Source: Escherichia phage TH09. Taken from it: DNA of 64,000 nucleotides. The notes under the pieces were generated by a model that saw only the letters and a program-made list of their open reading frames with translations, ran no database searches and was not told the origin of the DNA. The DNA is taken from sequence record MT446387.1; one strand, written 5' to 3'. How positions within the stretch are numbered: position 1 is the first letter of the stretch; every line of letters begins with the position of its first letter. The translations under genes were made by a program, and so were the position numbers. This document shows positions 17,401-56,596 of this stretch, in pieces.

Positions 17401-17886
17401 ATGATTACAGTAGATAAGTGGTTTAGAATTAATCGTGCTGATACAGGGCTGTGTAATTACTGGCCGGAACTTAGTGCAGGTACTGTCTTTAAAGTTCGTG
17501 AACTTGCAAAAGAATGTGAAGATGATATAGAGCCTGATACTGGAATTATTGAAATTGAACTTTCTGATGGAAAGATTATTAACATCTACGATAAGCCAAT
17601 TACGTATTGGTGCTTGTGGAATACTGAATCAGTAGAAAATGGCGAAATTGAAGAAGTTGTAGATAGAACTAATCAAGTTGTTCAGAAGCCTAAAGCTGAT
17701 TTTCAAGGTGAACGTATTTCATACGCATTAGCTAAATTAGCTGCACAAGAAAATAACGATGGCTATGAAGGAAATTTAATGCAAGCTGCCGCAGAGTACA
17801 TTGAATGGCTTGAAACTCAAATTTCTTTTTCTGACCAAAAGATTCGGCAATATAAGCGATTGAATCAAATGTTTTACAATACTTGA
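17401..17886 (+). CDS. pin: hypothetical protein (Pin protease-inhibitor-like position and size)
   Basis: 161 aa from ATG 17401 (track ORF begins at an upstream TTG); lies immediately upstream of gene 49 as pin does in T4; identity not verified. Confidence 0.35.
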   Translation: MITVDKWFRINRADTGLCNYWPELSAGTVFKVRELAKECEDDIEPDTGIIEIELSDGKIINIYDKPITYWCLWNTESVENGEIEEVVDRTNQVVQKPKADFQGERISYALAKLAAQENNDGYEGNLMQAAAEYIEWLETQISFSDQKIRQYKRLNQMFYNT

Positions 17887-17927
17887 AAATAATAAATACC
17901 CTTATCTATTTAAGGTAAGGGTTTATT

Positions 17928-18401
17928 ATGTTATTGACTGGCAAATTATATAAAGAAGAAAAACAGAAATTTTATGATGCACAAAATGGTAAATGTTTAA
18001 TTTGCCAACGAGAACTAAATCCTGATGTTCAAGCTAATCACCTCGACCATGACCATGAATTAAATGGACCAAAAGCAGGAAAGGTACGTGGATTGCTTTG
18101 TAATCTCTGCAATGCCGCAGAAGGTCAAATGAAACATAAATTTAATCGTTCTGGCTTAAAGGGGCAAGGTGTTGATTATCTTGAATGGTTAGAAAATTTA
18201 CTTACTTATTTAAAATCCGATTACACCCAAAATAATATTCACCCTAACTTTGTTGGAGATAAATCAAAGGAATTTTCTCGTTTAGGAAAAGAGGAAATGA
18301 TGGCTGAGATGCTTCAAAGAGGATTTGAATATAATGAATCTGACACTAAAACACAATTAATAGCTTCATTTAAGAAGCAGCTTAGAAAGAGTTTAAAATG
18401 A
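17928..18401 (+). CDS. 49: endonuclease VII (Holliday junction resolvase)
   Basis: 157 aa; CLIC...HLDHDHELNG zinc/H-N-H-like motif; matches T4 gp49 N-terminus MLLTGKLYKEEKQKFYDAQNGKC. Confidence 0.85.
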   Translation: MLLTGKLYKEEKQKFYDAQNGKCLICQRELNPDVQANHLDHDHELNGPKAGKVRGLLCNLCNAAEGQMKHKFNRSGLKGQGVDYLEWLENLLTYLKSDYTQNNIHPNFVGDKSKEFSRLGKEEMMAEMLQRGFEYNESDTKTQLIASFKKQLRKSLK

Positions 18402-42044: not shown

Positions 42045-42677
42045 ATGATTTATTATATGCACAAAAATCCACCGTTTAAATACGGTAAATTTCCTGATGC
42101 ACAATGTTATAATATAACGCCTGATGAAAATAACCGTGGATATCTTATTGGCACAATTTTTGTAATTGTTAAAGATAACGAAATCGTTGCCTGGGCAGAT
42201 TTTAAAGGTACAACATATGATGTTAATCCGGTGCCTTTCACATATTACAATTTAATGGATTTGGCATACGATTATAATTGGTTTAATCATGACACTTTGG
42301 CTCATATTGAAGGTGTAGGATTTGATATTTCATATTCGGAATACACTTTAAGCCCTATGAGTCGAGCCCATAAAGAACCTGAATATTTTTCATTTAGGAA
42401 ACGTGTAAACTTTAAACGCAGCACAGAGTATGTCGGTGGAATATTTGTTAAAGATAATCGAATTACTCGCATTATTTATCCTTTGGGCTGTGGTCAAAAA
42501 GATATTGATGTTAATTTAGACTTTACTGAAAACATCATTAATCATATTGCTTCTGTGTATTTTGGTATCGATCACAAAATTGTAATATGTGGATATGAAT
42601 TACCGTTTGAAGAACAGCCTAAAGTAAAAGTTTCTATTGACGATCAAATTTTTAATGCTTTTATGAATAAAGGTTAA
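42045..42677 (+). CDS. hypothetical protein (61.2-like position)
   Basis: 210 aa; C-terminus SIDDQIFNAFMNKG shared with next ORF. Confidence 0.45.
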   Translation: MIYYMHKNPPFKYGKFPDAQCYNITPDENNRGYLIGTIFVIVKDNEIVAWADFKGTTYDVNPVPFTYYNLMDLAYDYNWFNHDTLAHIEGVGFDISYSEYTLSPMSRAHKEPEYFSFRKRVNFKRSTEYVGGIFVKDNRITRIIYPLGCGQKDIDVNLDFTENIINHIASVYFGIDHKIVICGYELPFEEQPKVKVSIDDQIFNAFMNKG

Positions 42678-42683
42678 TATGTA
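42631..42683 (+). repeat. direct repeat copy 1 (about 50 bp) at gene junction
   Basis: tctattgacgatcaaatttttaatgcttttatgaataaaggttaatatg; near-identical copy at 42989..43041. Confidence 0.7.
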
Positions 42684-43035
42684 TAGTTCTGAATTTTCAT
42701 ATTTAAAAATGGAAAAAATTTCATACGATTTTATAGATGAAAAGGTTTATTACAGTTTCCATGAACCGCGTTTTAATAGTGAGGTTGGGTTTATTGTAGT
42801 AAAAGACAATTTCATTTTAAAGATATATTCGGCATTAAAGGATTTTCACTATGAAAATATTAACCTAAAATTTGATAAAGAAAACGTTCGTAATTGTGCA
42901 GTAACAATTACAGGAAATAAAGGTACGTGTGTTATGCTATCTGATGAAATTAATGATTTGCTAAATGATGCAGAAAATATTACTGCGCCATCTATTGATG
43001 ACCAAATTTTTAATGCTTTTATGAATAGAGGTTAA
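42679..43035 (+). CDS. hypothetical protein bracketed by direct repeats
   Basis: 118 aa; C-terminal 14 aa nearly identical to upstream gene. Confidence 0.45.
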   Translation: MYSSEFSYLKMEKISYDFIDEKVYYSFHEPRFNSEVGFIVVKDNFILKIYSALKDFHYENINLKFDKENVRNCAVTITGNKGTCVMLSDEINDLLNDAENITAPSIDDQIFNAFMNRG

Positions 43036-43203: not shown

Positions 43204-44232
43204 ATGTCATCAATACCTTGGATTGATAATGAGTTTGCATACCGTGCATTAGCTCATTTACCTAAATTCACACAAGTAAATAATAGTTCAACTTTTAAAT
43301 TACGGTTTAGATGTCCTGTTTGTGGAGATTCAAAAACCGACCAGAATAAAGCTCGTGGATGGTATTATGGTGATAATAATGAAGGAAATATTCATTGTTA
43401 TAACTGTAACTATCATGCACCAATCGGAATATATTTAAAGGAGTTTGAACCTGATTTATATCGTGAGTATATCTTTGAAATAAGAAAAGAAAAAGGTAAA
43501 AGTCGTCCAGTAGAAAAACCTAAAGAACTTCCTAAACAACCCGAAAAGAAAATAATTAAATCTCTTCCGTCATGTGTTAGATTAGATAAACTGGCGGAAG
43601 ACCATCCAATTATAAAATATGTAAAAGCTCGTTGTATTCCAAAGGATAAATGGAAATATCTTTGGTTTACAACTGAATGGCCTAAATTAGTTAATAGCAT
43701 AGCACCAGGAACATACAAAAAGGAAATTTCTGAGCCTCGTCTTGTTATTCCAATTTATAATGCTAATGGAAAAGCTGAGTCTTTTCAAGGACGTGCATTA
43801 AAGAAAGATGCTCCTCAAAAATATATCACCATTAAAGCTTATCCTGAGGCAACAAAAATTTACGGTGTTGAACGAGTTAAAGATGGTGATGTATATGTTC
43901 TAGAAGGACCTATAGATTCACTTTTTATTGAAAATGGTATAGCTATTACGGGTGGTCAATTAGACCTAGAAGTTGTTCCATTTAAAGATAGACGAGTGTG
44001 GGTTTTAGATAATGAACCTCGTCACCCTGACACTATCAAACGAATGACTAAATTAGTTGATGCAGGAGAAAGGGTTATGTTTTGGGATAAATCTCCCTGG
44101 AAATCAAAAGATGTCAATGATATGATTAGAAAGGAAGGTGCAACCCCTGAACAAATTATGAAATATATGAAAAATAATATTGCCCAGGGGTTGATGGCTA
44201 AAATGCGGCTATCTAAATATGCTAAGATTTAA
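43204..44232 (+). CDS. 61: DNA primase gp61
   Basis: 342 aa; N-terminal zinc ribbon CPVCGDSK...CYNCNYH; TOPRIM-like C-terminal region. Confidence 0.9.
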   Translation: MSSIPWIDNEFAYRALAHLPKFTQVNNSSTFKLRFRCPVCGDSKTDQNKARGWYYGDNNEGNIHCYNCNYHAPIGIYLKEFEPDLYREYIFEIRKEKGKSRPVEKPKELPKQPEKKIIKSLPSCVRLDKLAEDHPIIKYVKARCIPKDKWKYLWFTTEWPKLVNSIAPGTYKKEISEPRLVIPIYNANGKAESFQGRALKKDAPQKYITIKAYPEATKIYGVERVKDGDVYVLEGPIDSLFIENGIAITGGQLDLEVVPFKDRRVWVLDNEPRHPDTIKRMTKLVDAGERVMFWDKSPWKSKDVNDMIRKEGATPEQIMKYMKNNIAQGLMAKMRLSKYAKI

Positions 44233-44429
44233 ATTAACCCAACTAAAGCAAATGCTAAATCTACGAATGTATCAAGAGTAACTACTGGAATATTAATACC
44301 ATGTGCAATTGCAACAGGTGATAAAATAAAGTTCCAGAGTAAAATTCCTACCATAGCAGAAATAGTAAAAGCTATACGTTTTTTATTACCTTTTATGGCA
44401 TTAACAAGTGCCATTAATTTTTGTACCAT
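44229..44429 (-). CDS. antisense-oriented small membrane protein
   Basis: 66 aa on minus strand; strong SD AAGGAGG 4 nt before ATG; two hydrophobic segments; only convincing minus-strand gene in window. Confidence 0.45.
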   Translation of the reverse strand: MVQKLMALVNAIKGNKKRIAFTISAMVGILLWNFILSPVAIAHGINIPVVTLDTFVDLAFALVGLI

Positions 44430-44440
44430 GTGTCCTCCTT

Positions 44441-44466
44441 ATTGCTTTATATATTTATTGTATAAT
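44441..44466 (+). promoter_or_regulatory. candidate middle promoter (MotA box ATTGCTTTA + TATAAT)
   Basis: attgctttatatatttattgtataat upstream of gene 56. Confidence 0.45.
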
Positions 44467-44500
44467 TAATCTACTAACCCATGAATTGAAAGGAAAAATA

Positions 44501-45019
44501 ATGGCTTACTTTAATGAATGTTCACAACTGATCGAAGGCGCTGATAAAGCTCAAAATGAATACTGGGATATTCTCGGTGATGAAAAAGACCCGCTGCAGG
44601 TTATGCTTGATATGCAGAAATCTCTGCAGGTTCGTTTAGCTAAAGATAAACCTGAATATAACCGTCATCCTGATGATTTGGCTACTGCAGGTGAAGTTGT
44701 TGATTGGCTGCGCAATCAGAAAGATTATATTGATGATGAATTCCGCGAACTTCTGACTTCTCTTGGTGGTATGAGCAATGGTGAAAAAGATGCATCTGCT
44801 GTATGGAAGCCATGGAAAGCTCAACATGGTGAACGTCGTGAAACTCTGATTACTGATTTGTCTCCACAAGACCAGTTGGAAATTAAATTCGAAATGATTG
44901 ATATTCTTCATTTCGTTCTGAACATGTTCCAAGGTCTCGGTCTTACGGCTGAAGAAATCTTTAAACTTTATTATCTGAAAAATGCTGAAAACTTCGCTCG
45001 CCAAGACCGAGGTTACTAA
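44501..45019 (+). CDS. 56: dCTPase/dUTPase gp56
   Basis: 172 aa from ATG 44501 (track ORF begins upstream); MazG-like; matches T4 gp56. Confidence 0.8.
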   Translation: MAYFNECSQLIEGADKAQNEYWDILGDEKDPLQVMLDMQKSLQVRLAKDKPEYNRHPDDLATAGEVVDWLRNQKDYIDDEFRELLTSLGGMSNGEKDASAVWKPWKAQHGERRETLITDLSPQDQLEIKFEMIDILHFVLNMFQGLGLTAEEIFKLYYLKNAENFARQDRGY

Positions 45020-55618: not shown

Positions 55619-56043
55619 TGGCTATTAAATTTGAAGTTAATAAATGGTATCAATTTAAAAATAAACAAGCTCAAGAAGCTTTTATTAAAGACCATACTGA
55701 TAACGGAATTTATGCACGACGTTTAGGTATGCATCCTTTTAAAATTTTAGATGTTGACCATCTTGGTCGTCCTACTAAAATTATGTCATTTACTGGCACA
55801 ATTGGATATGCAACACATGGTGATATCCTTGACGAAAACTTTATCTGGCTCTCTACTAACGAAGCCGAGTTCTTTGATGAAGTGGAAAATCCATATCAGG
55901 CAGCTGAAGAGCAAGAGCAGGAAGAGCAAGAGCAAGAACAAATAGAAGATTTCACAGAATTCCCAGTCATGAAAGTTACTATTGAAAATAATGAACAGGC
56001 ATGGTCCTTGTATCAGATGCTGAAAGCTCATTTTAAGGAATAA
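55618..56043 (+). CDS. hypothetical protein with acidic EQ-repeat
   Basis: 141 aa; [12 protein letters not shown] tract. Confidence 0.4.
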
Positions 56044-56045
56044 TT

Positions 56046-56222
56046 ATGCCAATGTATGATTATAAATGCCAATCCGAAGATTGCGGGCATGAATATGAAA
56101 AAATTAAAAAGATTTCTGAACGAGAAAATGATGTTTGCCCTAAATGTCATCGTTTGTCTACTCGTCGGCCTTCTGCTCCTAAGCATGTGAATGGTGGTTT
56201 TTACGATTTACTTAAAGGGTGA
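56046..56222 (+). CDS. zinc-ribbon small protein (FmdB-like)
   Basis: about 58 aa; MPMYDYKCQSEDCGHEYE...CPKCH. Confidence 0.45.
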   Translation: MPMYDYKCQSEDCGHEYEKIKKISERENDVCPKCHRLSTRRPSAPKHVNGGFYDLLKG

Positions 56223-56224
56223 TT

Positions 56225-56596
56225 ATGTTTAAAATCGGTAAGAAATATCGTATTCGCGAAGGCGAAGAAAAGAAATATCTAATGTCTGCTATTTATAGGA
56301 ATGGTTCTATTAATGCTGTAATATCTACAAGCGAATTTATCGTTGAAGATATGAAAGGTCATAATGTTACAATGATTAGTACAGCATCTGGAAATGATGG
56401 AAAAATTCTTCACAGCTTTCAGAGTAATGTTCTAATTTATGATGAAGAATTTGACTTCTTCGAAGAAGTTACAGAAGATTTTGATTTTGGATGCACCATC
56501 ACTATGAAATCTGGTGACCCTCTTTCTTTTACAGTTAAAGATGAAAGAAGTCGCTTGAGAATTATTAGTCTTCTTCAAGCCATTAAATTTGAGTGA
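56225..56596 (+). CDS. hypothetical protein
   Basis: track ORF 56219..56596; ATG 56225. Confidence 0.4.
   Translation: MFKIGKKYRIREGEEKKYLMSAIYRNGSINAVISTSEFIVEDMKGHNVTMISTASGNDGKILHSFQSNVLIYDEEFDFFEEVTEDFDFGCTITMKSGDPLSFTVKDERSRLRIISLLQAIKFE

Follow-up and report, generated by a model that had tools for sequence, protein, structure and literature searches.

Between genes 61 and 56 of Escherichia phage TH09, a short open reading frame (ORF) runs against the direction of its neighbours, raising the question of whether it is a gene at all and, if so, when it is expressed and what its product might do. The DNA analysed, referred to as the window, is the whole 64,000-nt stretch of record MT446387.1. 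A sequence-only reading had proposed a lone antisense gene for a small membrane protein preceded by a canonical Shine-Dalgarno motif. The lone orientation is borne out by the closest relative, JLBYU22 (99.6% identity over the 901 nt compared), in which 104 of 105 CDS across 50 kb lie on one strand and the sole opposite-strand CDS is this ORF, and the motif is present at the expected place. The locus comprises the following features:

44229..44429, minus strand: putative small membrane-protein ORF (ATG start, 66 aa, TAA stop), orthologue of RB32ORF030w / RB69ORF029w, PHROG 2024
44434-44440, minus strand: Shine-Dalgarno AAGGAGG, 4 nt 5' of the ORF ATG
43204..44232, plus strand: gene 61 (primase), convergent with the ORF
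44229..44232, both strands: tail-to-tail overlap of the stop codons by 4 nt (gene 61 TAA 44230-44232, ORF TAA 44229-44231) within the palindrome ATTTAAAT
44395..44424, plus strand: early-strand hairpin ATGGCATT-AACA-AGTGCCAT followed by TAATTTTTGT, within the first codons of the ORF; terminator-like site

A conserved gene restricted to T-even phages

The ORF is a genuine protein-coding gene under purifying selection. In all lineages examined, even where identity falls to 20–30%, it is open at a length of 63–67 codons, with dN/dS values of 0.07–0.3 for informative pairs (synonymous sites being saturated between genera) and variable sites at codon positions 1, 2 and 3 numbering 48, 29 and 63, respectively. 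GGAGG or AGGAG ahead of the start codon is conserved in most lineages, while the downstream ORF copy in L020/L021 is without it. The stop-codon overlap with gene 61 is identical in T4, RB51, Mosigvirus and Kanagawavirus and longer in L018 and PM2; in L016, L020 and KPV15, the two genes are separated by a gap containing a hairpin. The early-strand hairpin of the window (about -9 kcal/mol) might serve to terminate transcripts reading through from gene 61. It was rejected as the conserved feature of the locus on account of its restriction to Tequatrovirus, being missing from other genera, and is a side feature outside the conserved unit.

Judged by its sequence, the ORF is the same gene as the RB69ORF029w / RB32ORF030w family (PHROG 2024, 'unknown function'). 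The profile phrog_2024 matches the encoded protein over its full length (E 1.4e-31, residues 2-66 versus profile positions 1-65 of 65), and RB32ORF030w of RB51, at the same position and on the same strand, is 97% identical. Hence, the gene is already known: it has been listed as 'hypothetical protein' since the RB69 and RB32 genomes, in RB-phage annotations since 2006 and also in PHROGs. Added here are its presence in T4 and JS98, two paralogous types in at least eight named genera, a late-promoter-like box and evidence from mutant T4_583L on dispensability. Together with the selection pattern and the conservation, the PHROG match supports the proposal that the opposite strand carries a real gene for a small membrane protein.

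By tblastn, the ORF was matched in 692 phage records, compared to 728 matching the surrounding 901 nt. In at least eight named Tevenvirinae genera, the locus falls within the 56-61 interval and is oriented against both genes; this placement was seen in Tequatrovirus (T2, T4, T6, RB51), Mosigvirus, Gaprivervirus, Dhakavirus, Jiaodavirus, Mosugukvirus and Kanagawavirus, and likewise in three metagenomic lineages. Comparison of the interval in T2, T4 and T6, proposed as a check on conservation, thus found the ORF in all three besides at least seven further genera. From RB49 it is absent. In Gaprivervirus, a homing-endonuclease gene is inserted between the ORF and gene 61, and the ORF is retained. 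The T4 copy is located at 17738..17938 on the plus strand of NC_000866, with all neighbours on the minus strand; in this reference record as well as in that of JS98, the ORF is present yet unannotated. The T4 neighbourhood holds dam, as the sequence-only reading had suggested, dam and the ORF being side by side in T4, and in both T4 and T2 dam lies between the ORF and the gene 56 promoter. The window was said to have no methyltransferase, in line with zero tblastn matches of T4 Dam in its whole length.

The family falls into two paralogous types, A and B, plus distant members whose homology was established by profile-profile comparison (probability 97.7%, E 2.3e-12). Outside T-even phages, phmmer against 1.84 billion representatives found no homologues, three long repetitive proteins being judged spurious. 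The window protein and diverse members gave no match in Pfam, NCBIfam or PADLOC, including the PADLOC anti-phage defence families at E up to 1 with five diverse members, and profile search of PDB sequences returned only a non-significant YejA stretch (E 0.36). Foldseek yielded 0 matches against PDB and only family members against BFVD. As for small hydrophobic toxins of the Ldr/Hok type, one of 13 members searched reached Ldr_toxin at a non-significant E of 0.1. The label 'putative head morphogenesis protein' given in T2 and T6 was rejected because these records carry shifted automatic labels, the dCTPase, for example, being named 'similar to ferredoxin'. Literature searches covering the ORF names, T4 ribosome profiling, late and antisense transcripts around gene 61 and the dam-61 interval returned nothing on the ORF, and the literature searched contained no record of its transcript, protein or phenotype.

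Upstream region and probable timing of expression

Two elements on opposite strands share the region ahead of the start codon:

44452-44459, minus strand: putative late-promoter-like box AATAAATA, 7/8 matches to TATAAATA (T4 consensus, -13 to -6), 22 nt before the ATG
44443..44466, plus strand: gene 56 middle promoter, MotA-type, divergent (TGCTTTA 44443-44449, 11-nt spacer, TATAAT 44461-44466; gene 56 ATG 44501)

The latter follows the MotA-type middle promoter consensus established for T4. In the window, the late-like box sits within the spacer of this promoter, so the overlap of the two promoter regions that the sequence-only reading had pointed out is there, at the level of a sequence reading; between genera, placement of the middle promoter relative to the box varies. 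Regarding the late-type tract described in the same place, the A/T-rich region and the late-like box were found, but the octamer is best read as AATAAATA and not as TAAATATA. T4-type late promoters consist of such a box placed about one helical turn ahead of the transcription start and need no -35 element.

Late motifs are depleted in the window, with 3 copies of TATAAATA versus 10.2 expected and 6 of VATAAATA versus 29.6 expected, so chance is an unlikely reason for a copy to have survived 22 nt ahead of a start codon. Other perfect TATAAATA copies, on the plus strand, precede soc and rI.1/rI. In nearly all lineages, nATAAATA is found 13–22 nt upstream of the ATG within unrelated flanks, Tequatrovirus alone showing three different contexts upstream of the ORF. 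At its first base, the box departs from the consensus in most lineages and varies (A, G, C, T); Entb_45 has a perfect TATAAATA ahead of the ORF, and L016 bears TATTAATA in place of nATAAATA. Where a tandem paralogue precedes the ORF, the box shifts ahead of the first copy. The A(-13) variant accounts for 9 of 50 listed T4 late promoters, and early and middle T4 transcripts all run counter-clockwise (PMC2988020). The orientation of the ORF, clockwise on the T4 map, fits late transcription only. In the 2006 promoter survey of RB69, no late promoter was called at this locus. As a sigma-70 promoter for the ORF, the best candidate, with 9/12 matches, lay 226 nt upstream within gene 56 and was rejected.

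The gene is probably switched on late in infection, with a predicted transcript start at about 44446 and a leader of about 17 nt. It is the only gene running clockwise, in the late direction, amid the counter-clockwise early/middle replication cluster and would carry its own minimal expression unit made up of the nATAAATA box, this short leader with its strong ribosome-binding site and 63–67 codons. Such a unit with its own late-type box suggests that transcription probably occurs only after DNA replication has begun, and it would then be carried out by host RNA polymerase with gp55/gp33, activated by the gp45 clamp. With the T4 late units depending on gp55/gp33/gp45 and TATAAATA, such as soc two genes away, the ORF shares the clockwise orientation, an octamer (7/8 matches, with the common A(-13)), A/T-rich DNA behind it and a short leader. 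Unlike these units, it stands alone within the early/middle cluster, faces the primase gene and has a box with a variable first base.

With this arrangement, the conserved entity could in principle be something other than a protein. A chance ORF, or a conserved non-coding DNA or RNA element (a gene 61 terminator or part of an origin) kept open by accident, would be in line with the shortness of the frame, with its having been left uncalled by the annotators of T4 and JS98 and with the early-strand hairpin inside its first codons. However, the substitution pattern contradicts this, dN/dS being far under 1 with synonymous change saturated, and the frame is open over the full span of divergence, the ribosome-binding site is kept in most lineages and the hairpin is specific to Tequatrovirus, rendering such a reading extremely improbable. 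Alternatively, the functional product might be a late antisense RNA, begun within the gene 56 middle promoter and extending into the 3' end of gene 61, that would switch off primase and dCTPase expression, or else oriA priming, at late times. The end of gene 61 is overlapped by the ORF in Tequatrovirus, Mosigvirus, Mosugukvirus and Kanagawavirus, with no terminator-like site downstream on the strand of the ORF; moreover, the box of the window lies inside the middle-promoter spacer of gene 56, whose transcript is the T4 oriA primer according to record annotation. Against an RNA as the functional product, selection clearly acts on the amino-acid sequence. Furthermore, L016, L020 and KPV15 carry a G+C-rich hairpin and a T-rich stretch directly 3' of the ORF which would halt antisense read-through, Gaprivervirus keeps the ORF despite the homing-endonuclease gene before gene 61, and in T4 and T2 dam separates it from the gene 56 promoter. 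We therefore regard this alternative as very unlikely, while an antisense side effect may exist in some genera.

Predicted topology of the protein

Two segments of the protein are relevant to its probable location:

44304..44375, minus strand: predicted transmembrane helix IAFTISAMVGILLWNFILSPVAIA, codons 19-42
44271..44336, minus strand: conserved core W-N-F-x3-P-x5-G-x3-P-x-V-x-L-D, codons 32-53, covering the outer helix end and the start of the tail

Both hydrophobic segments noted from the sequence are present as stretches, but only the first is plausible as a membrane span according to the Hessa scale and TMHMM. The summed insertion energy of the window protein on this scale is 0.41 kcal/mol for the best 19-residue window versus +6.5 for the C-terminal segment; across lineages, helix 1 ranges from -2.4 to +3.7 kcal/mol and the C-terminal segment from +5 to +11. 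For the RB69 orthologue, published predictions give a TMHMM span at 21-41 and no signal peptide. The AlphaFold model (pLDDT 78.7) shows helices at 2-14, 16-42 and 52-63. Basic residues cluster in the N-terminal part in every lineage, and the C-terminal 23 residues of the protein include no Lys or Arg and two Asp, ending in LVGLI. From this we infer an N-terminus-in, C-terminus-out topology. The product would be inserted into the inner membrane by one transmembrane helix, with the basic N-terminus (4–7 Lys/Arg) in the cytoplasm and a proline-containing, acidic and amphipathic tail of about 23 residues in the periplasm. Residues W32, N33, P38 and P48 are the only ones invariant across type A, type B and the distant members; they lie where the helix ends on its outer side and the tail begins, and the surface they form may serve for docking another envelope protein or for self-association.

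A small, membrane-embedded and probably late protein might also be a holin or pinholin-like lysis protein which accumulates late in the inner membrane and forms holes or depolarises it. The OE5505 orthologue (UniProt/BFVD entry) and one Klebsiella phage record are indeed named 'holin' or 'putative holin', and the conserved Asn in the helix could drive oligomerisation. These labels, however, are submitter or automatic names without experiments, and no Pfam holin family was matched by 13 members at E up to 10. The protein has a single credible transmembrane helix and its charge is N-terminal, the hydrophilic charged C-terminal domain being absent. The neighbouring genes encode primase and dCTPase, with no endolysin or spanin gene adjacent, the burst of a mutant frameshifted in the ORF (T4_583L, see below) is near normal, and T-even phages already use T as their holin. 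Compared to class I-III holins and pinholins, the ORF protein is thus similarly small, membrane-located and putatively late but lacks a charged tail at the C-terminus, a place in a lysis cassette and a profile match, so a holin appears very unlikely. Another reading of the same segments takes residues 1-42 as a long signal peptide whose cleavage after A-x-A (A40-I41-A42 / H43) would set free an acidic, amphipathic peptide of 24 residues in the periplasm. A basic region leads into a hydrophobic one, with Pro38 as helix breaker and small residues at -3/-1, which would agree with this reading, and the pattern is kept in type A. On the other hand, SignalP is negative for the RB69 orthologue, the hydrophobic stretch of about 24 residues has transmembrane length and includes the invariant W32 and N33, which is unusual for a signal peptide, and the -1/-3 pattern fails, with Thr at -1, in Jiaodavirus, Mosugukvirus and the L020 paralogue, A-x-A being absent from KPV15, PM2 and that paralogue. 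The signal-peptide reading was rejected on the SignalP result and on A-x-A not being conserved family-wide, and a secreted peptide is considered highly unlikely.

Dispensability and possible role

The genome-reduced T4 mutant T4_583L carries a 2-bp frameshift after codon 22 of the ORF and a 4-bp deletion in the spacer of its ribosome-binding site. The mutant still grows, its burst being 109 versus 120 for the wild type, and since a viable strain bears this frameshift, the ORF is dispensable in the laboratory. In nature, by contrast, the ORF is present in nearly all isolates found with the surrounding stretch. Among T4 membrane proteins, those known to be non-essential serve for the most part in the timing or inhibition of lysis, in superinfection exclusion or in evading exclusion by the host. 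Retention in nature, breakage in a viable mutant and this analogy lead us to suggest, tentatively and at less than an even chance, a late accessory envelope function in the class of lysis timing, lysis inhibition, superinfection or defence; the functional class is drawn from analogy and from dispensability in one heavily mutated strain. Co-distribution with rI was rejected as a functional clue because rI is more widespread than the ORF.

Like the RI antiholin, Imm, Spackle and holin T, the ORF protein is small, non-essential and probably located in the inner membrane or periplasm. The Sp gene is found 1.2 kb from the ORF in the same neighbourhood. In contrast to the ORF, the genes for RI, Imm, Sp and T lie on the other strand, and their transcription is early or takes in both the early and the late phase. 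RI combines a signal-anchor that can be released with a folded domain in the periplasm, and Imm has two spans, whereas the ORF protein would have one span and a 23-residue tail. Hence, its likeness to RI, Imm, Sp and T is one of lifestyle only, and it is set beside them by description. A doubtful but conceivable extension is that the protein acts as a new player with holin T and the RI lysis-inhibition system, or as a late factor against superinfection or membrane-based abortive infection, via the W-N...P...P residues at the periplasmic face. Overall, we put at somewhat better than even the view that this is a real accessory Tevenvirinae gene for a late-expressed inner-membrane protein with an accessory envelope role.

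The T4 reference record is thus still without a conserved, selected gene at 17738..17938 (plus strand), and screens based on T4 annotation would have missed it. Being the only gene in the late direction across roughly 50 kb of early/middle genes, restricted to Tevenvirinae and present in nearly all isolates found with the stretch, the ORF is a cheap and well-defined target for knockout and localisation experiments. If lysis timing, superinfection or host defence is affected by its product, the gene would supply a further part for systems with 70 years of research behind them.

The ORF between genes 61 and 56

The minus-strand ORF lying between genes 61 and 56 is a real gene, and one already catalogued rather than a new family. 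Its product matches PHROG 2024 (function not known) over the full length (E 1.4e-31), and in RB51 it is annotated as 'RB32ORF030w hypothetical protein, similar to RB69ORF029w'. The window is oriented in reverse of the standard T4 map, with the early and middle genes on its + strand; early and middle transcripts are all counter-clockwise (PMC2988020, PMC1524935). The features of the locus are:

43204..44232, + strand, gene 61 (primase)
44229..44429, - strand, the ORF (ATG start, 66 codons, TAA stop)
44434-44440, - strand, ribosome-binding site AAGGAGG
44452-44459, - strand, late-promoter-like box AATAAATA, 7/8 versus the T4 late promoter TATAAATA, 22 nt before the ATG
same stretch, + strand, MotA-type middle promoter of gene 56 (TGCTTTA, 11 nt, TATAAT)
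44501..45019, + strand, gene 56 (dCTPase)

Coordinates, strand, length and ribosome-binding site are exactly those proposed by the sequence-only reading, and the stops of the ORF and gene 61 share 4 nt, tail to tail. Identity of the region with Escherichia phage JLBYU22 is 99.6%; RB51, RB68 and many further Tequatrovirus genomes follow at 97-98%. The description as a lone antisense gene holds in JLBYU22, where, of the 105 CDS annotated over 50 kb corresponding to most of the window, 104 lie on one strand and the ORF alone is opposite. Likewise, the claimed absence of a methyltransferase extends to the whole window, which encodes no Dam-like protein.

Conservation was assessed on orthologous DNA from Tequatrovirus, Mosigvirus, Gaprivervirus and three metagenomic T-even lineages. 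Where synonymous change is unsaturated, dN/dS (Nei-Gojobori) is 0.07-0.3, while in intergenus comparisons synonymous sites are saturated with about half of the residues retained. As the variable sites per codon position also number 48/29/63, what is conserved is the protein, not an element of the DNA or RNA.

The interval between genes 61 and 56 is a site of variable insertions (window 44233-44500; T4 NC_000866 16846-17737; T2 AP018813 15202-16630). In Gaprivervirus DK-13, a homing-endonuclease gene separates the ORF from gene 61, and such a gene is likewise annotated inside the 61-56 stretch of G4498. Besides, adjacent gp61.2-like genes at 42045-42677 and 42679-43035 (+) end in nearly identical C-terminal peptides, SIDDQIFNAFMNKG and SIDDQIFNAFMNRG; the second, RB32ORF033c ('similar to gp61.2'), looks like a partial tandem duplication without T4 counterpart.

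Distribution and paralogous types

By tblastn, the ORF is found in 692 phage records (about 190 at <60% identity) versus 728 related genome records found, a retention of about 95%. The comparison of T2, T4 and T6 suggested by the sequence-only reading shows it in all three. T6 has the same compact layout as the window, neither having extra genes in the interval; T4 does have dam between the ORF and gene 56, as the sequence-only reading had suggested, and T2 has dam plus one more gene, a 181-aa ORF. The T4 copy (NC_000866 17738..17938, +), differing from the window protein at 2 of 66 residues, lies in the 'empty' 309-nt gap from dam to gene 61 and is unannotated in the reference record, as is that of JS98 in RefSeq (NC_010105 15343-15543, +).

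Distant homologues with 20-30% identity, syntenic and on the opposite strand, occur in Jiaodavirus (Klebsiella phage KPV15), Mosugukvirus (Pectobacterium phage PM2), Kanagawavirus (Enterobacter phage Entb_45) and Dhakavirus (JS98), and profile-profile comparison joins the T4-like and distant sets at a probability of 97.7% (E 2.3e-12). Weaker matches, by sequence alone, come from Enterobacter phage CIP9, Kosakonia phage 305 and Edwardsiella phage PEi26. The family comprises two paralogous types, which stand in tandem in one metagenomic lineage, a 67-aa type B copy lying directly upstream of type A with an 8-nt overlap (L020 2805-3008, also L021); DK-13 carries a broken type B remnant downstream of its type A gene (L004, about 2700-2875). 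RB49 (Krischvirus, outside Tevenvirinae) has no such ORF, its genes 61 and 56 being only 14 nt apart, and an exhaustive phmmer search of 1.84 billion representative proteins gave no homologue outside T-even phages, spurious repetitive proteins aside.

Late-promoter-like unit

The late-type promoter element noticed upstream in the sequence-only reading is present on the ORF strand as AATAAATA, and its overlap with the gene 56 middle promoter is such that the box sits inside the spacer between TGCTTTA and TATAAT. Upstream of the ORF, a constant unit of nATAAATA, then 13-22 nt including a GGAGG-type ribosome-binding site, then ATG, is found in three unrelated contexts within Tequatrovirus, and also in Mosigvirus, Gaprivervirus, the metagenomic sequence L018, Dhakavirus, Jiaodavirus and Mosugukvirus. 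The Kanagawavirus box is a perfect TATAAATA; the sole exception to nATAAATA is the metagenomic L016, with TATTAATA. When a paralogue lies ahead of the gene, the box stands in front of the first copy. The box is no by-product of the gene 56 promoter sharing the stretch, as its placement relative to the MotA box varies among genera. A(-13) variants make up 9 of 50 listed T4 late promoters, and T4-like phages conserve position -13 poorly (PMC2988020, PMC1524935). The 2006 RB69 survey called no late promoter at the ORF, and no transcript mapping for it was found in the literature searched. The most economical reading of this arrangement would be gp55/gp33/gp45-dependent late transcription of the ORF.

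Over window 1-64000, TATAAATA occurs 3 times versus 10.2 expected and VATAAATA 6 times versus 29.6, all shuffles giving at least the observed count. Two of the three perfect copies are on the + strand, before soc (45390) and before rI.1/rI (4402). Late-promoter-like octamers hence appear purged here unless used, which suggests that stray late promoters are selected against in the early region. The only perfect minus-strand copy (56290-56297) lies inside a + strand gene; about 100 nt downstream starts a minus-strand ORF of 52 aa (56028-56186), antisense to a zinc-ribbon-like gene and probably not a gene.

In the window and T4, no terminator-like site follows the ORF on its strand, so that a late transcript would enter gene 61 antisense. 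In L016, L020 and KPV15, a G+C-rich hairpin and then a T-rich stretch come directly after the ORF. Because it is not conserved, antisense run-in may be a side effect but is not taken for the function. Any late antisense transcript would also cross an inverted repeat in the 3' end of the gene 61 coding sequence (44078-44140); its 9-bp arms, CAACCCCTG ... CAGGGGTTG, enclose a loop of about 35 nt, and it may be due to chance. On the early strand, an 8-bp hairpin with T-run (44395-44424, +), kept within Tequatrovirus only, falls within the opening codons of the ORF and could terminate gene 61 read-through just ahead of the gene 56 middle promoter.

Predicted topology and role

The N-terminal part carries 4-7 Lys/Arg in all lineages. 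Of the two hydrophobic segments claimed by the sequence-only reading, both exist, yet only one is a likely span. Residues 19-42 or so form a helix with a summed Hessa-scale insertion energy near zero, whereas the C-terminal stretch comes out at +5 to +11 kcal/mol and has conserved acidic residues, joined in distant members by His, Lys, Arg or Asn. In the AlphaFold model (28-sequence alignment, pLDDT 78.7), residues 2-14, 16-42 and 52-63 are helical, a proline-containing loop joining the last two helices, and TMHMM in the 2006 paper predicted for RB69ORF029w a single span (21-41) without signal peptide. The likely topology from these models is a cytoplasmic N-terminus and one span, followed by a tail of some 23 residues on the periplasmic face. 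W32, N33, P38 and P48 are invariant in all types, G44 and G64 nearly so; the invariant residues cluster where the helix ends on the outer side and the tail begins, a pattern that suggests a specific contact surface, not a generic anchor.

No characterised family was matched by sequence or fold (Pfam, NCBIfam, PADLOC, PDB profile search, Foldseek). A holin label in a few records is regarded as unsupported, and 'putative head morphogenesis protein', given to T2 and T6 in records of a single submission, stands among automatic labels of neighbouring genes that are clearly misassigned. In the genome-reduced T4 mutant T4_583L (MZ375356; L027 2380-2500), a 2-bp deletion causes a frameshift after codon 22, a 4-bp deletion lies between ribosome-binding site and ATG, and a point change accompanies them; editing has hence inactivated a gene missing from its authors' annotation. 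The mutant is viable and stable and has a burst of 109 versus 120 for the wild type (PMC9825161), so that on E. coli K-12 in rich medium the phage can do without the gene. Due to the many other lesions, subtle phenotypes are unreadable from this strain. Retention together with laboratory dispensability suggests that the gene plays an accessory part, in competition or in host interaction. Known non-essential membrane proteins of T4 mostly serve lysis timing, lysis inhibition, superinfection exclusion or escape from host exclusion, and by analogy a role in this class would be our best, albeit tentative, guess.

The sequence-only reading was correct in its finding and essentially right in its interpretation. 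Added here are the gene's omission from the reference annotations of T4 and JS98, its Tevenvirinae-wide occurrence in two paralogous types, the conserved late-promoter-like unit, one span instead of two, and dispensability in a viable T4 mutant. The ORF is no surprise, but a tidy, testable orphan gene of a model phage.
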